Source: an uncultured archaeon
Lineage (GTDB): Archaea > Asgardarchaeota > Thorarchaeia > Thorarchaeales > Thorarchaeaceae
DNA: 32,000 bases
Direction: 5' to 3'
Assembly (NCBI GenBank): GCA_964354495.1
Contig: CAYHAA010000006.1
Location: 60,001 to 92,000 of the forward strand
Both the position numbers and the translations under genes were made by a program. This document shows, piece after piece, positions 3,349 through 32,000 of the stretch (positions are counted from its first letter, which is position 1; each line of letters begins with the position of its first letter). The notes below the pieces were generated by a model that was given only the letters and a program-made list of their open reading frames with translations, made no database searches and was not told where the DNA came from.

Positions 3349-3431
3349 GATTAAGACTCCTCAATCAGACAATGCTTAGCTCTAGCATAATCATGCAAAA
3401 AGCGTTTGTATCCGGATAGAATCGCACTAAT

Positions 3432-3743
3432 CTATCCTGTTAACTCAATCTCGATATATACAGAGTCAGGAATTCTGACACGCATAATCTGACGAATAGC
3501 TCTTTCGTCTGCATCAATGTCGATAAGCCGCTTGTGAATTCTCATCTCCCATTTATCCCAAGACTCAGAGCCTTGGCCACAGGGTGTCTTTCGGGTTGGA
3601 ATAACCATCTTACGAGTTGGTAGTGGTATTGGACCAGCCATTCTGACACCTGTTTTTCGAGTAATTCTTCTAATCTGATTACAGACTCCATCCAGGTGTT
3701 CTGTGCTCGTACTTGACAATCGAATTCTCGCTCGTTGAGTCAT
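3432..3743 (-). CDS. rps10: 30S ribosomal protein uS10
   Basis: [35 protein letters not shown] motifs. Confidence 0.98.
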
Positions 3744-3886: not shown

Positions 3887-4684
3887 TTGGAGCCTCCTGT
3901 TATCGTCAAGCTCGGTGGATCTGTAATAACACACAAAGACTCCTCGCCCCCACGTGTCAACGACGAGCATCTCAGTCGAATAGCGCGCGAATTAGCAAAT
4001 CATGATAGTCCTCTTATTGTGGTTTTAGGCGGTGGAGCTCATGGTCATCAAGCTGCACATAAACATGGATTTGGCAGTCTTAAAACTCCTTCACAACAAC
4101 TGCTAGCTGGAATTCCTGATATTCACCATAACATGTCAGTCCTGGCTCTAAGAGTCGAAGAAGAGATGAACAAGCAAGGTGTGCCTGGGGTTGTCTTCTC
4201 CCCATTCACATTTGTCACTTTACGAGATAACCACATAGAGCATTTTCCTACTGCTATCATCAAAAGAACATTGAACGCCGGCTCCTGCGTAATAATCCAT
4301 GGTGATGTCTGCTTTGATCTAAACAGGTCTGCTTCTATTCTAAGTGGAGACACAATTGCTGTACATCTTGCGGAAAAACTCCTAGCAAGAGCTGTCTTCA
4401 TTGGAACAAACGTAGATGGTGTTCTTGAAGAGAACCCGATCCGAAATCCCGCAGCTCGGTGTATACCTCTCATAGACAGTTCAAACAAAAGCCAGGTATT
4501 AGCAAACATAGGTCCTTCTTCTAGTACAGATGTGACAGGTGGTATGGCAAGAAAGATCAGTGAACTTCTTCAATTGAGTGACCAAAAAGTGGAAGTAGCA
4601 ATCTTCAACCTCCTAAGGCCAGGCCGATTAACTGCGTTGTTGTCAGGAAATCCAACTATTTGTACAAGGTTACAGTTTTCTTAG
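3887..4684 (+). CDS. ipk: Isopentenyl phosphate kinase (amino acid kinase family)
   Basis: VKLGGSVIT, GGGAHGH with the IPK-signature His, HGDV, ILSGD, TNVDGV and DVTGGM. TTG start. Confidence 0.9.
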   Translation: MEPPVIVKLGGSVITHKDSSPPRVNDEHLSRIARELANHDSPLIVVLGGGAHGHQAAHKHGFGSLKTPSQQLLAGIPDIHHNMSVLALRVEEEMNKQGVPGVVFSPFTFVTLRDNHIEHFPTAIIKRTLNAGSCVIIHGDVCFDLNRSASILSGDTIAVHLAEKLLARAVFIGTNVDGVLEENPIRNPAARCIPLIDSSNKSQVLANIGPSSSTDVTGGMARKISELLQLSDQKVEVAIFNLLRPGRLTALLSGNPTICTRLQFS

Positions 4685-7600
4685 CTAACTAGGGTGGAAA
4701 CGCTATCGTCCATAGTCCTCACTACTAGATTTCCAGGTGTCACCACACTATCCTCAAGATACTCAGACGCAGTCAGAATGCATACAACTTGATTCGACTT
4801 ACAGGTTCTACATGCAACATCACTATGAAGATTCAGCAGAGTGCTGAGCTGCTGTTGATTCGGAAAGATAACATATGACGTACTACCTGCGCACAAATCA
4901 TAGTATCCATGATCGCACGACACGTCCGAATGGTGCTTCTTTAGTTCTGCCTCAATTATGCCTGTAGCTTTCTCTTTCAACTCCTGCAATACTGAGGAAT
5001 TCACAATCCAAAGGCCTTGACCCACATCGACAAACTTGCTTTCATTGTTGATACGTAATGCGGTTAGAACCTCATCAGCAAGTAACTCGGTAAGCGCTCT
5101 TCTTCCCTCCTCAGCAATCAGTGGAGCAGATCTTCCCTTGAGGGACTGAAGAGCTGTCGTTTCAATGAAATCCAAAAGCACCTCCCATCTGACTTGGCCG
5201 TTTGATAGATCAACGAAATCCTGAATGAGTCCAAACCATAACCGAATCTGAATGGCTCTGCTAGTTGCTGGACCAATCTCATGTATTGCTTCAATCAATT
5301 CAGTTTCTTCACCAGAGTCCGCAGCGACCTTGTTCCTATTATCAGAGCCCTCAACAGGAATCGCTGCCCGGCTGAAACTCTCTATCATCGAATCAAGAGA
5401 GCTTGGAAAGGCAGAAACAACGTTCACAGCATAGAATTCTTCAGAGCTGTTAAGGACTTCTCGAAGTCTGGCCGCGGCAACACTTCCCCTTACTACAACA
5501 TACATTTCACTTATTCCATTTCCAAGAATTCCCATGTGGTGTCGTATCTTTTCCAAAATCACTTCCAAGGATGATGCTCTGAGATGTTCGGGTATGATGA
5601 CCACTGCTTTATCTTCAATAACCAAATCTGGAAAATTCGTTTGAGATTCGCGTATTGCAGAATTGTCCTTCTCTATGCCCAACCTGCTAGTCACATACTC
5701 CATTATCACACGACGAATTGCCTCCAATCCTTGTCCAGGCAATGCGTATACAAAACCGCCTGAAACAAGTGACAGGGCCTCTCGGTCGATGGACCCTAGC
5801 GTAACCAGGTTTCTAATCACCTCAGAAATATCGTCTTCCATCACTGTTGAATCATGAGTTGATAGAAGGTCGTGAATCTGCTGTTCGGTGGCCATACCCG
5901 CAGAAGCAAGATAACCGATGATGTGGCTGCCAAAGCGTCCTGCCCTATCAAAGACAATGGTCTGCGCTTCAGATTCTTGAGGCTGGAGCACCGGTCTTCT
6001 TTCGGGTTCAGAGTCCTCCGTTTCGGTGATAGTACCACCTGTCTTATTCTGTGACTCTTTCTTTGGCTCCTCTGATCGCAACTCACTCGAATCATCATGT
6101 ATCACTACGGGGTATTTGTCAATAAAGGGCTCAGTAGCAATTTCAAACGTGCCTGTGTCAGGAATCGCAACCAAGGCACGTCCGCGTTTCATGGTTCTCA
6201 GATATGACTCTTGATCTTGATTTAATGATAGAAACTTACTTCCAACTTGGCTATCATATGGCAGCCTAAATACGATCTTTGTTGCTGTGTTCGCTAGAAT
6301 GTTTGATGATATATTAGGTCTGGTTGATACTACAATGACACCTTGCCCAGTCGCACGTTGCAACAAGACCATTGATTCACCTGTAGTTACATCTGCTGAA
6401 GAGTCCTTCGAATAGATTTCAGGCACAAGATTGCTGGCTTCTTCAAGAACTACAATATGATGTAGACCTGAAACAATCCCTCTCCTCATAGAGCTATCAA
6501 AGATATGCTTGGCAATCAAGTTGTACAATAGACGGGCAGATTCCATGCCTCCTGTTCTTGCTATGTGGCTTAGGTCAAGAATCACACGTTTGTCTAACAG
6601 ACTCGAGATTCTTATCGTTCTAGAACCACCACTCAGAATCTCGCCCAAAGGTTCTTGAGAGAGAATCTGAAGCCTGTTGAGGAGAGCGTCACTTGTCATT
6701 CGTCCCAAACGATCTTCTGTGGCAAGCTCAGATACTGTTTTGACCAGCCCCTGAATGGAATTGTTGCCCTCCAACGATTCTGCTAGTCTATCTATAGACT
6801 CCCTTAGCAATCTCTCCATAGCGGGAGAGAGTTCTGAAGACTCACCCTTTTCCTTTAGAAGTTCTCTAAGCATGACGAACGTTGAGTAGGCGCAGCCTTC
6901 ATCATCTCCCATATCTGAATCCATTAAACCAATCACAAATGATTTATCAAGACCCGGTTTCAGGATTATTACATCTTCTACCCGCCCAGCAAGCCCTGAG
7001 TACTCCGTTCCTTTGATATCAAATATCCACCATGGGATATTTGTTTTCTCACTGACTTGAACAATAAGATGCTTCACAAGGGTTGTCTTTCCAGTACCTG
7101 TGGCTCCGAGAATAGCAACGTGCTCTCTCAACCACTCTGTTTTTAGTCCAGCTTTTGAGAAGGGTCGTCCTTCAAAGACAGTGTTTCCAATCTCGAGTTC
7201 GTTGCTCATAGATTCCCGCGGAGGAACTTGAAACACAGGGAGAACATTTGGACTGATAGCTGGAAGTTTTCTGATTGGAGTATTAATGAATGAAACCAGC
7301 CTGCTTACATGCATTTTCTGTTTCTTGATATGTTTCCTTGTGAGTAGTCTAACTACAGTTCTTTTCGGTAATCGCTGAGGTGAAAGGCTGATGGCATTGT
7401 TTCCGCCCCAGATAGACAATATTAGTCCACTCAAGCCATCTTGGGCGATGGCGATATCTTCCAACGACTTGCATTTGATAAGGAAATATACTGATGAATC
7501 AAACCATCCGACATTGTCTTGTATCTCTTCATACTCTGTGATGAGTTTCTTCTTCTCTGCGTAATCCTTCAATGACTCCTCTTTTCGTTTCTCCTTTGAT

Positions 7601-8481
7601 TGTATTGTTTTCCATTTTCCTTCAAGCTTCTGCTTTTCCTTGCCAGGTTTGCAAGTAGAAAAGACACAGGTCACACTGGCCGAGTAGTTCTGTTTCAATA
7701 GTGTTGATAGGAAAGTACCAATTTGAGATGATTCCAGTGATGGTTTCACTCCAGGAGTACCTTTCAATACCATCAATGACGTCGCTTTCATACTTTCCCT
7801 TGTTATCTCACTTCTTTCTGAGTCGAATCCGTCTGCAAACGAACCAACTGCATCTTGAAGTTCATCTTCTTCAAGCAATTTGATCTCCACTAGATTGAAT
7901 GATGCCAGTAGAATCGCCTCGACTCTTGTTGCCTCTCTCCTCAGGATTTCTCTGACAACATCAACTTCTTGATCTGTTGCTGTAATGTAGATTCGAAGAA
8001 ATGGGTCGCTTCTTGATACTCCTGCCTCGAACGCCATACTCACAGACTGCGTCATCCCCGCACGCATCGCTAGCAGCATAGATGTATTGTATTTTGGATG
8101 CCCACTCTCATCAGAAAAGACCGAGCCTGATACTGAAACGATCTCTAGACAACATACCCCCGTTGTCTGTTTTTCAGAGCCAAACAGCATGATTTCTTTC
8201 TCTATCGATACTGCAAAGTCTTCGTGTTCCATCTGATGCTTACTGAGAGCAATTCCACTCACGGCAGGTATTAAACAGATCAACCATTCTATGGCTGTCT
8301 TATACGGAATAACTGGGGGACTAAACATCTTATAGAGTGGCAGAATATAGATGAGAAGAAGATACAGGATTGCAGCCGCTATCCCAGCAAGCCAGACCCT
8401 ATGTAACCATAGCAGCAAATTGAGGTTACTTTGCTCTAGAGTACCTGTTTCTGACCGCTTGAATGGCAATCTGAATGACAT
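4681..8481 (-). CDS. Membrane-anchored HerA/VirB4/FtsK-like (DUF87) ATPase with C-terminal wHTH and degenerate nuclease-like region
   Basis: Two N-terminal hydrophobic helices, Walker A HVAILGATGTGKTT, IFDIKGTEY, VILDLS, Walker B IVVLEEASN, ILANTATKIVFRL and MKRGRALV. An HTH-like segment and PDLVIEDK follow the ATPase. GAGGGA SD upstream. Confidence 0.8.
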   Translation of the reverse strand: MSFRLPFKRSETGTLEQSNLNLLLWLHRVWLAGIAAAILYLLLIYILPLYKMFSPPVIPYKTAIEWLICLIPAVSGIALSKHQMEHEDFAVSIEKEIMLFGSEKQTTGVCCLEIVSVSGSVFSDESGHPKYNTSMLLAMRAGMTQSVSMAFEAGVSRSDPFLRIYITATDQEVDVVREILRREATRVEAILLASFNLVEIKLLEEDELQDAVGSFADGFDSERSEITRESMKATSLMVLKGTPGVKPSLESSQIGTFLSTLLKQNYSASVTCVFSTCKPGKEKQKLEGKWKTIQSKEKRKEESLKDYAEKKKLITEYEEIQDNVGWFDSSVYFLIKCKSLEDIAIAQDGLSGLILSIWGGNNAISLSPQRLPKRTVVRLLTRKHIKKQKMHVSRLVSFINTPIRKLPAISPNVLPVFQVPPRESMSNELEIGNTVFEGRPFSKAGLKTEWLREHVAILGATGTGKTTLVKHLIVQVSEKTNIPWWIFDIKGTEYSGLAGRVEDVIILKPGLDKSFVIGLMDSDMGDDEGCAYSTFVMLRELLKEKGESSELSPAMERLLRESIDRLAESLEGNNSIQGLVKTVSELATEDRLGRMTSDALLNRLQILSQEPLGEILSGGSRTIRISSLLDKRVILDLSHIARTGGMESARLLYNLIAKHIFDSSMRRGIVSGLHHIVVLEEASNLVPEIYSKDSSADVTTGESMVLLQRATGQGVIVVSTRPNISSNILANTATKIVFRLPYDSQVGSKFLSLNQDQESYLRTMKRGRALVAIPDTGTFEIATEPFIDKYPVVIHDDSSELRSEEPKKESQNKTGGTITETEDSEPERRPVLQPQESEAQTIVFDRAGRFGSHIIGYLASAGMATEQQIHDLLSTHDSTVMEDDISEVIRNLVTLGSIDREALSLVSGGFVYALPGQGLEAIRRVIMEYVTSRLGIEKDNSAIRESQTNFPDLVIEDKAVVIIPEHLRASSLEVILEKIRHHMGILGNGISEMYVVVRGSVAAARLREVLNSSEEFYAVNVVSAFPSSLDSMIESFSRAAIPVEGSDNRNKVAADSGEETELIEAIHEIGPATSRAIQIRLWFGLIQDFVDLSNGQVRWEVLLDFIETTALQSLKGRSAPLIAEEGRRALTELLADEVLTALRINNESKFVDVGQGLWIVNSSVLQELKEKATGIIEAELKKHHSDVSCDHGYYDLCAGSTSYVIFPNQQQLSTLLNLHSDVACRTCKSNQVVCILTASEYLEDSVVTPGNLVVRTMDDSVSTLVS

Positions 8482-8549
8482 GAACGTGTATCCCTCAGTC
8501 TATAGCTACTCTCATGAGTATCACTTCACCAAAATCGAACCATTATACC

Positions 8550-8568
8550 AGTTCTTGGCATAAGAACT
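8550..8568. repeat. 7-bp perfect inverted repeat with 5-nt spacer
   Basis: AGTTCTT-GGCAT-AAGAACT in the divergent intergenic region. Confidence 0.85.
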
Positions 8569-8583
8569 CCCCTCAACATAGAA

Positions 8584-8608
8584 TCCTACTAATCATCAAT
8601 TAGTAGGA
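8584..8608. repeat. 10-bp perfect inverted repeat with 5-nt spacer
   Basis: TCCTACTAAT-CATCA-ATTAGTAGGA. Confidence 0.9.
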
Positions 8609-8786
8609 GATTAAAAACATACAAACCCACTCAAGATAGGCTTGCATGAAGCATGTCGACTCAAATCAGTATTGGTGAATGGACATTGATAATCACGACC
8701 ACACTACACCAGTCGGCTGCAGTTGAAATTGCCTCGAGTCGAATAATCGTTTCCGAATTCCTTACCAACTCTAAGCTGGTGGCCCC

Positions 8787-10748
8787 ATGAAGTCTATGAG
8801 AATGTACAGTACCTTACTCTTGCTGGGAGTCTTCATTCTACTAACCCTTTCCTCAGTAACCAATACCGCTACTGCAGAAGGAGAAACTGTTGTTCAGCGT
8901 GGCGAAAGTGTGACAATTACAGTTCTACTCCTCCAAAATGGCACTTATGGAAACCCTGTTTCAGAGCAGCGGGTTGAATTCTTCGATCAGACTCACAATA
9001 TCCCACTAGGCAATGACACAACTGCCTCTAGTGGCATAGCATCGATTGAATGGGCAATCCCTCTCACTTTTCCCCTGGGCCCCACACTAGTCAATGCAAC
9101 CTTCCGAGGCAATGAACTGCTCTTCTTATCACCTTCTGCGCAGTGGATTACCTTGAAGATCATATCCTCCACCAATCTGATCATCGAGCATGAAACTGGA
9201 CCCTTTGCACCTGGAGATTCATTCACCATTTCGGCTCTTCTTCTTGATGATGGAAACACGCCCATAGCAGACGCCAAGCTCATTGCGCTCAAGGGAAACA
9301 CAGTGCTCGGCATGTCCATAACAGACTTATCAGGTATAGCTACATTTACGTTGCGTTGTAATGACACTTGGAGCGTTCTAGGTGAGAATGTAATATGTAT
9401 TGTACACGAATTGAACCTGGTGGATTGCTATGCCAGCACTACAAAGTCGTTTACAATTGATATTCGCCAAATAGTAGTTTCAATTGATGTAGGAAGTCAT
9501 CCAACTGAGGTCATGCTTGGTGACACTCTGTATTTTGAACTAGGTCTGTCCTGTTCTGATGGTGGTATTTCCGCCGAACTTGGAGTCTTTCTGGATGATA
9601 CCTTCATTGATACCATCTTCACAGATGCTCTTGGCACAGGGACGCTCTTCTTCACACTTGATTCGCGATTTGTGCTTGGTATGTGTACGTTCGAAATTGT
9701 GTACAATGGAACCGTACGCTACACAAGTTCAATCAATGGTTTTGAGTTATCTATTGTCAGTCCAGCTCTAGTAAACATCCGGATACCTTCTGTTCCTGTG
9801 ATTGGGTTCGATGCAGAAATAGAGATGACAGTCCTTGATTGCCTTGGTCGACCGCTTACAGGAACTCATATCACTGTCTTAGACGCTTCGAATGGACTCA
9901 ACACAACCCTGCAGTTCCTTTATGATTCCTCTATAGCCGCAATTCTGTTCCCGATACTTGGCCCTCCTGGTCAACATAATCTGCTGATAGAGCTAGGAAA
10001 CCGATTCATCACTAATGACACCTGTTACTACTCTCTGACTGTCTGGTCGGCTCCCGTGCTCATCTTGCAGGAATGCAACGTTCTTCATTATGCCTCTCCA
10101 AACCAAGAGATTCTTTTAGCAATCAGATTGACGGACTTTGCTGGGAACTGCTCCCATAGAAATCTTACAATTCTAATCAATGATTTCGCTGCAATGTCTG
10201 CATCGACGAACCCTGATGGAATGGCTTCCTTGAGAGTTAATGCGCCAAAATCTGAAGGAGCATACAGTATTTCATTTCTCTATGCGGGCAACATCTCTCA
10301 ATACGAATTATCGACCAGTTACGACTATGAATTGATAGTCAGTCGACAGATTCCTGTCCAAATAGAAACGAGTCATTTTGAAGTAATTCCACCTCTCCAA
10401 GAGATAACAATGCTTCTGCGGGCTCGATGTTTGAATGGATCATTGCTGGCGGGAATCACTGTCAAATTCATCTGGCTTCTACATGACTATTATGTACAAT
10501 CGCAAGAGGGAGGCGTTCTCACACTCCATCTGTCTATTCCTCCAGAGGGTGGCTACTATTCTCTCAGTTACGAAGTGGAAGGTGATGATGGCTTATCTTA
10601 TTCCGCAGGTTCAATTGAGATACCCATTCTTCAGGCAGATATATTGGCCTCTCAAGGAGTTGGTATCATAGGATTTGCAGTTAGCCTAATGATTACTCTT
10701 GTCAGTATGGTCATTCCGCTGATAAAGCGAAAACATCTCAATAACTAG
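8787..10748 (+). CDS. Secreted, C-terminally membrane-anchored Ig-like repeat surface glycoprotein
   Basis: N-terminal signal peptide, repeated beta-rich units (TDxxGxAT, YxG), about 10 N-x-S/T sequons by hand count, and a C-terminal TM helix followed by KRKH. Confidence 0.8.
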   Translation: MKSMRMYSTLLLLGVFILLTLSSVTNTATAEGETVVQRGESVTITVLLLQNGTYGNPVSEQRVEFFDQTHNIPLGNDTTASSGIASIEWAIPLTFPLGPTLVNATFRGNELLFLSPSAQWITLKIISSTNLIIEHETGPFAPGDSFTISALLLDDGNTPIADAKLIALKGNTVLGMSITDLSGIATFTLRCNDTWSVLGENVICIVHELNLVDCYASTTKSFTIDIRQIVVSIDVGSHPTEVMLGDTLYFELGLSCSDGGISAELGVFLDDTFIDTIFTDALGTGTLFFTLDSRFVLGMCTFEIVYNGTVRYTSSINGFELSIVSPALVNIRIPSVPVIGFDAEIEMTVLDCLGRPLTGTHITVLDASNGLNTTLQFLYDSSIAAILFPILGPPGQHNLLIELGNRFITNDTCYYSLTVWSAPVLILQECNVLHYASPNQEILLAIRLTDFAGNCSHRNLTILINDFAAMSASTNPDGMASLRVNAPKSEGAYSISFLYAGNISQYELSTSYDYELIVSRQIPVQIETSHFEVIPPLQEITMLLRARCLNGSLLAGITVKFIWLLHDYYVQSQEGGVLTLHLSIPPEGGYYSLSYEVEGDDGLSYSAGSIEIPILQADILASQGVGIIGFAVSLMITLVSMVIPLIKRKHLNN

Positions 10749-10760
10749 CTCGGAGTGAAT

Positions 10761-10871
10761 TGGTGCTCCGGCCGGGATTCGAACCCGGGTCGAGGGATCG
10801 AGAATCCCCCATGCTGGGCCGGACTACATTCGGTACTGTTTCAGTATAACACTTCAACAGTCCACCGGAGC
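10761..10871 (-). tRNA. tRNA-Glu(CUC) with 33-nt intron at position 10/11 (10829-10861); CCA encoded
   Basis: Removing the intron gives a 78-nt cloverleaf: GCTCCGG/CCGGAGC acceptor, GGGGA-TTCTCGA-TCCCT anticodon arm, CCGGG-TTCGAAT-CCCGG T arm. Confidence 0.95.
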
Positions 10872-10893
10872 CTGAGTATGCCAGCCCGGAGCC
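10865..10893 (-). repeat. 8-nt direct repeat GGCTCCGG duplicating the tRNA-Glu 5' acceptor strand, 21 nt upstream
   Basis: Minus strand reads aaG-GCTCCGG-GCTGGCATACTCAG-GCTCCGG-TGG. Confidence 0.85.
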
Positions 10894-10917
10894 TTAGAAG
10901 CACGCTCATCCGGGTCA

Positions 10918-10930
10918 CAAATAAGCCTTT
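10918..10930 (-). promoter_or_regulatory. Putative BRE/TATA for tRNA-Glu
   Basis: Minus strand AAAGGCTTATTTG, which places the TSS near 10894 by standard archaeal spacing. Confidence 0.45.
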
Positions 10931-10976
10931 CCCCATTTCTCAGGACTTGTACTGGAGTGGCTCGCTTGAGAAGGAA

Positions 10977-11183
10977 TTAAGGTGTACTGAATAGCTGAGT
11001 GAGATTGCTCCAGCTATCTTGTAAGAGTTGCAACAAGCCTGTGACAACGTCCTGTGCCCATCCTGTAGCTTGGAGGATTACTGCGATTACTATTGATACA
11101 GTCACCACAGCAAGACCTAGAAGAAGACTTTCCTCCACTAATGGACCGCCTTGCTCGTTGTCAATCAGATTTTCATTATTCAT
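10977..11183 (-). CDS. Flp/type IV pilin-like small protein (class III signal peptide)
   Basis: DNEQG|GPLVE gives Gly at -1 and Glu at +5, followed by a long hydrophobic helix. 68 aa, with GGGTGGAG SD at 11188-11195. Confidence 0.65.
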   Translation of the reverse strand: MNNENLIDNEQGGPLVEESLLLGLAVVTVSIVIAVILQATGWAQDVVTGLLQLLQDSWSNLTQLFSTP

Positions 11184-11211
11184 TAAGCTCCACCCTGGCC
11201 TTTCATCATCT

Positions 11212-11370
11212 CTGACCGTTCATTGTCAGTTGGACAGACTTGGGCACCAGAGTGCTGCCCGCCTAGAAAACGGCACTGGGCTTGACTCTGTGAGGACAGA
11301 GTTCGTGCCGGGTGATCCTCACATGAGTATTTTGGACCGAACTATATAAGCACCTGTCCAACTCTGTCCA
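11212..11370 (-). ncRNA. Candidate structured leader / cis-regulatory RNA upstream of the pilin gene
   Basis: Several nested and mutually exclusive stems (see findings). No family recognised. Confidence 0.35.
11343..11350 (-). promoter_or_regulatory. Putative TATA box (CTTATATA) for the pilin transcript
   Basis: Good match to the archaeal TATA consensus, about 160 nt upstream of the pilin ATG. Confidence 0.5.
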
Positions 11371-11449
11371 GGTTTCTTACAGCTGTTATCAACCCTTTTG
11401 AGGTCCTAAAGGAGGATCGCGTTCATTTTGAGCAGATGTCATCGTATTG

Positions 11450-13153
11450 CTAGTGTGATTTACTAGGTTCACGACATGCGAATCTCAAAGGATGTCCATA
11501 TGACCACATTTCTTCGCCTAGTTTTCCAAAATCCATCTTGTCCCCGTTATTCCTTACTGTGTCTATCAATATTGTGATAGGTTTTTGAGAATCCTTGATT
11601 CCAAGGCTTCTAGCAAGAGTCTGAAACGCACCGTCGGGTGCCCAATGAATGGTAGTGGGACTAGTGACGTCATACAAGACATTTGTTCCTAGATAGGTCA
11701 CCAGACCATCGTGAATTCCTCTGCGTATCTCAACGATTTCTTTGATGCGACGTAATGACTCACCGGGTTTAGGTCTTTCCAGCGTAACAACCAAATCCAT
11801 CATTCCAAGGTTAGATCTATCAATTCCATGTCCATGAATCCATCTGGAAATCAAATTAGAAGCTGAATCACTATGGCATGTCTGAATGGACCGAAGGCCT
11901 GCTGCAATAGCCTGAAACAAGGCTTTACTGTGTTCAGCTGTCTGAATCTCTCCGAGAATCAGATAGTCTGGCGATCGATGAAGACATTTCACGATTTCTT
12001 CACTCTTGTTCAGCTTCTTATGCTGTTCATCTACAGAATCCACCTGTAATCTGACTTGATGATGATTTGATGAGGGCCTACTTTCAATCGCATCTTCTAT
12101 GTAGATCTTCCTCCACCACTGGGGTGTAGTCATATCTAGCGCATTCAGGAGGGTAGTCTTTCCTGTGCCTGGTCCTCCTGTAATGGTTATGTTGAGCCTG
12201 CAAGCAACTGCTAGTAGCAGTATAGCTGCTGCCTCATGTGTGATTGTATGGTTTTCTATCAGATTCTGAATTGAGTATGGCTCTCTGCGAGCACGACGAA
12301 TTTCAAGGTACAGACCATTCGTGCAGAGAGGAGGTACACTAGCTGACAGACGAAGTATTGTACTCAAAAGGTCAAGCTCCATCTTTAGAGACGGATTACT
12401 TCGATCTAGGTGTAAATTACTCTCTGCCCTGATAAACGTGATAATTCGCGGCACCTCATCCATGCAGAAGGTAATTGATGTGGCGCATCTGCCATATTTC
12501 TGATGATCAAAATAGGCGACAGTGTCAGGTCCATCAAGATACACTTCTTCAGTCAATTCATCCAGCAGAATCGGAATGAGAGGTCCGAGTATGTGCGTTT
12601 GGTGTGCAACAATCTGTGAGAGCCTTATTCGTGTATTTTCATTGATTTCAGGAATATGTTCCTGAATGTATTCCGAAATCTTGTTCATCATTCGTTTCTG
12701 TTGTTCTGTTAATTGTTCTCTTGTTCCCAAGGGAGAACTTGCACTGTTCTTGAACTCCTTTATGAGCCTATTCAGCAGAGAAAATTCCAATGATGTCCTC
12801 ACAATCGGTCGATATGCGCACTTGACATGAGAGTTTCCATATTCTCCCATGAAAAAACAAAGGTATGGCCCAACACAATAGAAATCGATGAGATTCCCTA
12901 TTTCACAGAATAGTTCATCATTGTTACCAATATATACTGAATCCCATCCTTCAGAATACCATGGAGGTTCAGTCCTCAAAAGCTCTCCTGTGAACCGAAG
13001 ATGCAACAACCCACGATTCGCCTCTGCAAGAACGATAGGTTCCTCTGATTCCTTGGGCAGAGCACAGAGCTTCTGGCATATTGATTCAACTCCATCAGGG
13101 CAGTTACTACATCTATCCGATGAACAGTGAATGACCTTGACACTCTCTTTCAT
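11450..13153 (-). CDS. Type II/IV secretion system ATPase (TadA/CpaF/VirB11/FlaI-like)
   Basis: LRLSASVPP, IRR, Walker A ITGGPGTGKTTLLNAL, Asp-box IEDAIE, LHRSPDYLILGEI and His-box QTCHSDS. Confidence 0.9.
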   Translation of the reverse strand: MKESVKVIHCSSDRCSNCPDGVESICQKLCALPKESEEPIVLAEANRGLLHLRFTGELLRTEPPWYSEGWDSVYIGNNDELFCEIGNLIDFYCVGPYLCFFMGEYGNSHVKCAYRPIVRTSLEFSLLNRLIKEFKNSASSPLGTREQLTEQQKRMMNKISEYIQEHIPEINENTRIRLSQIVAHQTHILGPLIPILLDELTEEVYLDGPDTVAYFDHQKYGRCATSITFCMDEVPRIITFIRAESNLHLDRSNPSLKMELDLLSTILRLSASVPPLCTNGLYLEIRRARREPYSIQNLIENHTITHEAAAILLLAVACRLNITITGGPGTGKTTLLNALDMTTPQWWRKIYIEDAIESRPSSNHHQVRLQVDSVDEQHKKLNKSEEIVKCLHRSPDYLILGEIQTAEHSKALFQAIAAGLRSIQTCHSDSASNLISRWIHGHGIDRSNLGMMDLVVTLERPKPGESLRRIKEIVEIRRGIHDGLVTYLGTNVLYDVTSPTTIHWAPDGAFQTLARSLGIKDSQKPITILIDTVRNNGDKMDFGKLGEEMWSYGHPLRFACREPSKSH

Positions 13154-13213
13154 GCGACAACGCCTCCGTGGATTGGTTTTTCTTTGTCACGTACACAGGT
13201 AAGAAACAACTCG

Positions 13214-14257
13214 TCACTCCACAATTTCGTTGGGAAGTTCAATGATTTTCTTCATCATTCCGAAGTGATCCCTAATACTGTACTCTGCCACTTCTGTAGC
13301 TGTTGAAGTCAGTTTTTGAGTCAGAACGGGGCTTCTTCCATTCTGATAGGCAATCAAACGATCGCTTGCATAAGCTACTGACACTGTGAATATGAATGGA
13401 TTACGTCCTCCGCGTTTTGAGGATGGTATCATGTCCAAAGTCATCACAATTCTTTCTCTGAGTGCATTTTCATAGGATTTGAGGTCCCATCCACGGGACT
13501 TAACCTTGCTCGATACTCGTGCGTTGTTCATCAGCATTGAGAGCACTCGTGGAACATAGTCTTTCGGTTTTCGGATTTCCGGAGCATACCCTGTCACTGA
13601 CTTGAGTCTGAGGGCTTCCCGTACCATAGCTCTAACATTAACACGGTGCCCACATTTTTCAAACACATCAGCTATCTCGTTGAGTGTTATAGGAGCTTCA
13701 TCCCTGAACTCTCTCACAGCCATGAGAAGGCATACTGCAATAAGCAGGATATTGTTGCCCACACAGTCTGCAGTTTCTGATGTTACTTTCTTGTAGAGAT
13801 ATGCTGTACGATCCCGCACCTGCTCATTTAGCATCAACAATTTAGACACATGATTGAGAGTTCTAAGAGCTCGATATTTTGCTTCATTCTTTCCAATTCT
13901 GACTCTGGTACTATAAATTGTCTTAAGTCGTTTGAATTTCCTTTGTGCACGAGCAGATAGGGCTTGGCCGTGCGCATCTTGAAAGTACTTATCCTTATGA
14001 AATCCTATGTAACTTCCAAGTCCATCCACGATATGAATCCGATTTCCTAATGACACATACACACTAGCATCGGGAGTGTCACCAAATCGCTCTTCACCCA
14101 TCTGGTATGTTGGCAGGACATACTCTCTTGTGATGACCAAACCACATTCAGCACATACTATATGCCCTCGACTAGTAATCAAGAAACCGTTACAGTCAGG
14201 ACATGTTAACGATGATATTGAATGAGTTTCATACGTTCCATCAGTCAAAAACCACAC
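13214..14257 (-). CDS. tfb: Divergent transcription initiation factor IIB (TFB) paralog
   Basis: Zn ribbon CPDC-x13-CAEC and two cyclin repeats (PITLNEIA, GRNP, TQK..EYSIRD). The true start may be the TTG at 14248. Confidence 0.85.
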   Translation of the reverse strand: MWFLTDGTYETHSISSLTCPDCNGFLITSRGHIVCAECGLVITREYVLPTYQMGEERFGDTPDASVYVSLGNRIHIVDGLGSYIGFHKDKYFQDAHGQALSARAQRKFKRLKTIYSTRVRIGKNEAKYRALRTLNHVSKLLMLNEQVRDRTAYLYKKVTSETADCVGNNILLIAVCLLMAVREFRDEAPITLNEIADVFEKCGHRVNVRAMVREALRLKSVTGYAPEIRKPKDYVPRVLSMLMNNARVSSKVKSRGWDLKSYENALRERIVMTLDMIPSSKRGGRNPFIFTVSVAYASDRLIAYQNGRSPVLTQKLTSTATEVAEYSIRDHFGMMKKIIELPNEIVE

Positions 14258-14374
14258 CCATAGCAGATGTGTACATCCCTTCCTAACTGGGTTTCAGATA
14301 TAGTTCATACATTTGTACCAGCTAGAGATACAGTAGAACGAACAAAGCCATATATTACGAGAACTGAACGAGCC

Positions 14375-31577: not shown

Positions 31578-32000
31578 ATGGAAATCACCATCCGATGTCC
31601 AGTTCATCCGACCGAAGATACTGAGATAGTAAAGAAAGCGGTAGAAGCCCATCTGGGTAACATCCCACTGGAGATAGTCGAGCACAATCAAATCCTAGAG
31701 ATGACCTCCACAAATACTGATCGAGATTGTCTCTCATTAGTGAGGCAGTCTATCCATGAGAAGCGGATACTTGCAGTAGTCCGCACAAGGCTCTTGAAGA
31801 ACTTCAACGATTCTGAATATACAACGAGTATGCATCTTGACAAACAAGCAGCATCTGTTGGGAAATTCCGATTGATAGACAATGATGATGAGAATCCTCC
31901 CTTAGGTTCTATTGAGATTCACCTTCTCTTCACAAGCATGCCTCTGTTTCAAGAATTCCTTGATTGGTTCTGTCCAAGAACTAAGGACGGGAAAGTGATT
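31578..32000 (+). CDS. UPF0201/DUF54 RNA-binding protein, truncated by the window end
   Basis: Not in the supplied ORF track; hand-translated MEITIRCPVHPTED..VKKAV...LDKQAASVG..PPLGSI..DWFCPRTKDGKVI, open to the window edge. Confidence 0.85.
   Translation, partial: MEITIRCPVHPTEDTEIVKKAVEAHLGNIPLEIVEHNQILEMTSTNTDRDCLSLVRQSIHEKRILAVVRTRLLKNFNDSEYTTSMHLDKQAASVGKFRLIDNDDENPPLGSIEIHLLFTSMPLFQEFLDWFCPRTKDGKVI

Follow-up and report, generated by a model that had tools for sequence, protein, structure and literature searches.

How can an intron be spliced from a tRNA precursor when the helix that marks its splice sites is built from nucleotides of the acceptor stem? This question is raised by a tRNA-Glu(CUC) gene of a Thorarchaeota member (Asgard archaea), which lies on the minus strand of the 32,000-nt stretch of DNA that was analysed (the window). 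Its layout, read by hand, is given in Table 1, where the mature G1 corresponds to position 10871 and the G1 of a leader copy of the acceptor strand to position 10892. Both ARAGORN and Rfam missed exon 1 and detected the gene only from about nt 9–11 on. Several other tRNAs of the same genome were missed or mis-called because of introns, among them a tRNA-Glu(UUC) with a T-loop intron that escaped ARAGORN (contig C3, about 31660–31770, minus strand). About 7 kb from tRNA-Gly(UCC) lies a 3′ fragment of a tRNA-Gly-like gene on its own, possibly an attachment site (contig C27, about 14290–14340, plus strand). The genome is a MAG assigned to Thorarchaeota, since its named near-identical gene matches are from Candidatus Thorarchaeota. 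The genes flanking tRNA-Glu(CUC) are syntenic across the loci of relatives; window positions 4681–14257 encode a HerA/VirB4-like ATPase, an Ig-like surface protein, a T2SSE-family ATPase and a TFB paralogue around the tRNA, and this synteny extends to many relatives.

Table 1. Features of the tRNA-Glu(CUC) gene and its leader (window coordinates)
Feature	Position	Strand	Remarks
BRE/TATA-like promoter, GGAAAGG-CTTATTTG	10932–10918	−	BRE 10932–10926, TATA-like box 10925–10918; motif kept in orthologues
Leader copy of acceptor nt 1–7, GCTCCGG (putative decoy strand)	10892–10886	−	0 to ~4 nt after the predicted start
Second half of leader block, RYTGG (GCTGG in this gene)	10885–10881	−	Defined by column conservation; complements D-arm nt 20a–23
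Variable leader spacer	10880–10872	−	Pairwise identity 0.34–0.37 among orthologues
Exon 1, tRNA nt 1–10	10871–10862	−	nt 5–8 (CGGT) form the central splice helix
Intron of 33 nt, position 10/11	10861–10829	−	ACCG at 10834–10831 pairs with nt 5–8; 5-bp inner helix
Exon 2, tRNA nt 11–76, anticodon CTC, encoded CCA	10828–10761	−	
3′ acceptor strand CCGGAGC, partner site of the copy	10771–10765	−	Inside exon 2
D-arm partner site for RYTGG	10817–10813	−	Inside exon 2

The central helix of the intron is fully paired (4/4) in all 69 distinct intron-bearing tRNA-Glu(CUC) genes. Its intron side reads ACCG in 50 genes, GCCG in 17, and ATCG and GTCG in one each, all variants being compatible with pairing. 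The helix is 4 bp long and stops 2 nt short of each cut, the arrangement typical of BHB-type introns. The inner helix is strict in 36/69 genes, contains a 3×1 loop in 12/69, including the gene studied here, and takes other forms in 21/69. In this gene the motif has a relaxed BHB form, with one extra T at 10835, the 3×1 loop on the 5′ side and an outer helix that consists of the single pair C4–G12 with no bulge. Across the intron-bearing orthologues the intron is 26–36 nt long. Cutting after G10 and before T11 yields a canonical cloverleaf, and both the 13 intronless orthologues and the outgroup run nt 10 straight into nt 11. Judged by its sequence, the insertion is a non-canonical archaeal BHB-type intron, and its splicing is predicted. 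The genome encodes two EndA paralogues, RtcB and RNase P RNA. For the latter, two matches exceed the cut-off (157.5 and 110 bits; locus L243:704–1043 and 3350–3675, contig C7). A 261-bp direct repeat (94.6%) is common to both, a 743-aa ORF lies between them, and the second match diverges at its 3′ end; the arrangement has the appearance of an islet that has integrated at the gene for RNase P RNA.

Non-canonical BHB introns (BHB, HBh′, BHL) of archaeal tRNA genes have been reviewed (PMC4090602) and are abundant in Asgard archaea (PMC11291895; bioRxiv 10.64898/2026.10.13.758758). The tRNA-Glu(CUC) intron shares with them a short D-arm insertion, the 4-bp central helix, bulged cut sites, an intron hairpin, and the presence of two EndA paralogues and RtcB. 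It differs from them in that its central helix takes acceptor nt 5–8 and in that a conserved leader element goes with the intron. The text of the review (PMC4090602) gives no example at position 10/11. The word ‘leader’ does not occur in the Asgard census, which states that its detection of insertions is less reliable near gene ends. Because nt 5–7 are needed by both, the splice helix and the acceptor stem are mutually exclusive.

The leader of the gene contains a possible way out of this conflict. An earlier note on this DNA had described an exact copy located 21 nt upstream of the mature 5′ end, and GGCTCCGG is indeed found at both 10893–10886 and 10872–10865 on the minus strand, with a period of 21. 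An exact 8-mer repeat within 40 nt has a chance probability of about 5e-4. The eighth base of the repeat (G-1) is common to only 2/69 orthologues, and the conserved unit of the leader is a 12-nt block, GCTCCGG-RYTGG, which reaches 5 nt (RYTGG) beyond the copy. The decoy reading put forward in the same note stands in part; the note had also overlooked the RYTGG half, which is able to pair with the 3′ strand of the D-arm. Mean pairwise identity is 0.92 in the block, 0.45 in the preceding 12 nt and 0.34–0.37 in the spacer, the middle of the intron and the trailer. Changes within the copy are wobble-compatible or lie at the helix end, and the period between copy and gene ranges from 19 to 25 nt among orthologues. 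Among 20 tRNA genes examined in the genome, tRNA-Glu(CUC) alone has a leader that matches the 3′ strand of the same tRNA at 7/7 positions; the rest score ≤4.5. A pattern search of 400 Asgard genomes for 10/11 introns in TGTAG-type D-arms, which is blind to introns ending in G and to other isotypes, returned real matches only in this family; four matches outside it turned out not to be tRNAs. A loose pattern scan of metagenomes gave two real genes among 80 loci, and the block is present in both.

The copy also coincides with the expected transcription start. An 8-bp TATA box is centred about 27 nt before the start, which takes the form of a pyrimidine–purine initiator (PMC5316973). This spacing places the start at about 10894–10895, a prediction rather than a mapped end, which agrees with the start at about 10894, right at the copy, proposed previously and does not lie downstream of the copy. 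The distance from the beginning of the TATA box to the copy is 29–33 nt in 68/69 intron-bearing genes, the box being mis-called in the remaining one, and a pyrimidine directly precedes the block in 67/69. Moreover, the copy is found at the predicted start in all intron-bearing orthologues, so that it is not absent from intron-bearing relatives. The tRNA-Glu(CUC) transcript probably opens with a conserved spare copy of the first acceptor strand. Upstream on the same minus strand, a gap of 45 nt separates the end of a 68-aa Flp-like pilin ORF (window 10977–11183), which falls below the cut-off of the ORF list, from the tRNA promoter; any transcript reading through would also include the leader block.

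The consequences for folding were modeled with ViennaRNA ensembles of the 69 intron-bearing precursors, in which tertiary contacts, Mg2+ and modifications are outside the model. The median probability (P) of the splice helix was 0.90 with the leader versus 0.02 without it (n=69). Shuffled leaders gave a partial rescue (0.37), and replacement of the 7-mer or of RYTGG gave 0.58 and 0.74, respectively. For the gene studied here the corresponding values were merely 0.46 with the leader and 0.01 without. In the precursor models the copy pairs with nt 66–72 at a mean P of 0.98, and RYTGG pairs with nt 20a–22 at a mean P of 0.58 (0.72 in this gene). Pairing of RYTGG with tRNA nt 4–8 is minor, with a mean P of 0.08 before and 0.13 after splicing; it would explain the purine at block position eight and is retained as a possible alternative. 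Pairing of the copy with D-arm nt 13–23 (8+3 bp possible) was considered as its main partner and rejected, since its mean P is 0.01 and natural changes at copy positions 6–7 would sit in the middle of the helix. The suggestion that the copy acts as a decoy on CCGGAGC while the real strand sits in the intron helix is well supported, the copy being far more conserved than its flanks, decaying after intron loss and being needed for the splice helix in these models.

We therefore favor, with a probability of roughly 0.7, the explanation that the transcript opens with a stand-in strand which occupies nt 66–72 and part of the D-arm and so frees nt 4–8 for the splice motif. The leader block would be a cis-acting element on which the splicing of this acceptor-stem-invading intron depends, and in the meantime the spare copy likely holds the 3′ end of the tRNA. 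According to the computed folds, the acceptor stem would win without the leader and the splice motif would barely form; with the leader, the copy would lie on nt 66–72 and RYTGG mostly on nt 20a–22, leaving nt 4–8 free and placing the motif within a long stem. A two-subunit EndA would then cut after G10 and before T11, the leader helices would retain the 10-nt first exon until ligation by RtcB, and RNase P would be unable to cut at the true +1 before the real strand has paired. After ligation the real strand would displace the copy, possibly aided by tertiary folding and by the irreversible RNase P cut, and the leader would be removed. This final step is the least supported of the series. The earlier note had proposed that the true acceptor stem re-forms after splicing, but the decoy fold is still favored at that stage, by a median of 4.6 kcal/mol (6.9 before splicing), so that the models lend no support to a swap back to the true stem. 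With the leader present, the cloverleaf costs a median of 4.6 kcal/mol more in a model without tertiary contacts and modifications.

Alternatively, the main contribution of the block could come around the time of cleavage or later, when it would tether the short exon 1 or keep RNase P from cutting too early, with EndA selecting the motif unaided. Exon 1 is just 10 nt long and its partner in the intron is gone once cleavage has occurred, and the leader helices have 11–12 bp on offer. A role of this kind would likewise link the block to the intron, and D- and T-arm introns of permuted tRNAs are spliced before end-processing (PMC3978253). However, with a median P of only 0.02 for the splice helix in the absence of the leader, cleavage itself should suffer, and we consider it unlikely that tethering or braking is the main role of the block. 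Such a role is compatible with the stand-in strand explanation, and the two are not exclusive.

The stand-in strand explanation is further addressed by genes that have lost the intron. The block is intact at ≥11/12 positions in 65/69 intron-bearing orthologues versus 0/13 intronless ones (all ≤10/12), 69 and 13 being counts of related genes and not of independent events. The expectation that intronless orthologues lack the copy is not borne out in this simple form: 8/13 keep a pairable 7-mer, although none retains 11/12 block positions. These eight genes, from two genera (g29 and g20), have a fully pairable 7-mer and 9–10/12 block positions, and two intronless genes of a third genus (g22) retain GCTGG. 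In the RpoB tree, whose root rests on a single long outgroup branch, the earliest branch (g28) has both intron and block, and grouping of the intronless genomes into one clade is rejected (AU p 0.0009). Intronless g29 and G051 are sister to the intron-bearing G046; intronless G055 and G059, together with G056, which was placed via flanking DNA, are sister to intron-bearing members of g22; and intronless G050 and G052 fall within an unresolved node. Going by these sequence relationships, the intron has been lost separately three or four times, and at least three. The damage to the block that followed each loss ranges from slight (g29, G052) to complete (G050). In g29 the block lies 26 nt from the start of the TATA box, and the predicted transcription start therefore falls inside the block. 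The CCC of the D-loop, the partner of RYTGG, is unchanged in 69/69 intron-bearing genes and altered in 6/13 intronless ones. No leader copy was found in 16 intronless Glu(UUC) paralogues, whose own 5′ strand is matched at ≤5/7 positions, or in the intronless outgroup. One tRNA-Glu(UUC) gene (L125, genome G003) has a variable-region insertion that is missing from most relatives. The competition between the two helices, the conservation of the block and its tie to the intron are thus apparent at the level of sequence.

The same data bear on the idea that the block has a role independent of the intron, either as a promoter or initiator element at the DNA level or as a leader structure modulating how tRNA-Glu(CUC) matures. 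Its location at the predicted start, the 9–10/12 positions kept in intronless g29 and g20, the GCTGG of the two intronless g22 genes and the ability of RYTGG to pair with tRNA nt 4–8 (mean P 0.08–0.13) would all fit. However, the block is absent from the other 19 tRNA genes examined in the genome, its repeat period of 19–25 nt is unlike that of a protein-bound direct repeat, and it is degraded in 13/13 intronless genes, with the predicted start inside the block in g29. An intron-independent role thus appears rather improbable.

A further question is which of the two copies is the mature strand. In two genes (L043 and L063) the 3′ strand and the downstream copy have both changed so that pair 3:70 is C–G, whereas the upstream copy has kept T. 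Furthermore, the upstream copy tolerates C4T, G6A and G7A, whereas the downstream copy always pairs 7/7 and is intact in intronless genes with a decayed upstream copy. Since it co-varies with the 3′ strand, the downstream copy is taken as the mature strand and the upstream copy as leader. The reverse assignment would make the upstream copy the true 5′ exon and the next 21 nt a second, acceptor-stem intron, like the 3/4 introns of Thermoproteales. The upstream copy lies 33 nt from the beginning of the TATA box and the mature +1 of many other tRNA genes here at 31–60 nt, and the palindromic CCGG of both copies can build a central helix with two 3-nt bulges. However, the sole complete motif leaves R8-Y9 instead of U8-R9 and has a P of 0.001 before and 0.05 after splicing, no other register with a conserved helix was found on inspection by hand, and the canonical sequence is not restored with the upstream copy as exon, as it would be for a 3/4-type intron. 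Together with the 3:70 covariation, the upstream mismatches at positions 6 and 7 and the intact downstream copy of intronless genes, this makes a second intron very improbable; its registers 0/1 to 9/10, enumerated by hand, were ruled out by covariation and folding. Finally, it is hardly credible that the block is just the neutral remnant of a short tandem duplication that may date from the arrival of the intron: duplication is a plausible origin of the copy and partial copies outlast the intron, but the family-wide identity of 0.92 next to near-random adjacent bases and a conservation that tracks the intron speak against neutrality.

Several known systems resemble this arrangement. As in the trans-spliced split tRNAs of Nanoarchaeum equitans, Caldivirga, Aeropyrum and Staphylothermus (PMC4033280, PMC3218864), a leader that is not part of the tRNA base-pairs, lets the splice motif form and holds the exons. 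The leader of a split tRNA, however, pairs with the trailer of another transcript, contributes to the motif and is cut off by EndA, whereas that of tRNA-Glu(CUC) belongs to a single-unit gene, would pair outside the motif with sequence of the mature tRNA and would have to be displaced later. Separate units with complementary leader and trailer are not seen here; the gene is contiguous and has one promoter. With the circularly permuted tRNAs of Cyanidioschyzon merolae and Thermofilum pendens (PMC3978253, PMC3218864) it shares an unusually long distance between promoter and 5′ end and, as we infer for tRNA-Glu(CUC), splicing before RNase P action. Unlike in permuted genes, the order of exons is normal, the 3′ half following the intron rather than preceding the 5′ half, and what is added upstream is a second 5′ strand instead of the 3′ half. 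The acceptor-stem 3/4 introns of Thermoproteales (cited in PMC4090602) likewise have a motif incompatible with the acceptor stem, but the extra sequence in tRNA-Glu(CUC) is a leader and not an intron. In the literature covered on tRNA introns and leaders, which includes the older work only in part, we found neither a leader decoy nor a leader repeating the acceptor strand.

The same arrangement is present in a different tRNA of another Asgard family. A blind pick of tRNA matches whose Rfam alignment lacks the 5′ end, made in five other Asgard genomes, yielded three genes, a small sample. Two of them have D-loop introns and no leader copy. In the third, tRNA-Leu(UAA), nt 3–6 are used by an intron at 8/9, and a leader copy lies 39 nt after the beginning of the TATA box. 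This leader copy is found in six genomes in total, the five further ones coming from two genera; a second tRNA-Leu gene copy in one genome (G202), with a degenerate 5′ strand, lacks it. In the tRNA-Leu model the copy pairs with the 3′ strand at a P of 0.93, and the splice helix slips register in a run of G, giving a strict-register P of 0.05. The tRNA-Leu(UAA) loci (L366 and L374–L378) have a longer leader with a conserved inner hairpin, and part of the L366 leader is complementary to the copy and may act as an anti-decoy. With some reservation, we lean towards a general, repeatedly evolved cis-acting RNA chaperone for archaeal tRNA introns that invade the acceptor stem: a two-part leader mimicking the acceptor strand and a D-arm partner would enable splicing, tether the exons and set splicing before RNase P, and would then be swapped out. 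In this reading, tRNA-Glu(CUC) of Thorarchaeota would display the full history of such a leader, from family-wide conservation to decay once the intron had repeatedly been lost.

For genes of this kind, standard annotation misplaces the 5′ end, as ARAGORN and Rfam did at tRNA-Glu(CUC). The tRNA-Glu(CUC) locus constitutes a family-wide natural experiment, with repeated loss of the intron, a mature strand identified by covariation and a second conserved half of the leader element. Its natural variants, namely, the loss lineages, the mismatched copies and the 3:70 change, are ready controls. The leaders of tRNAs would thereby gain a possible function, and the order in which splicing precedes 5′ processing may be built into the transcript itself.
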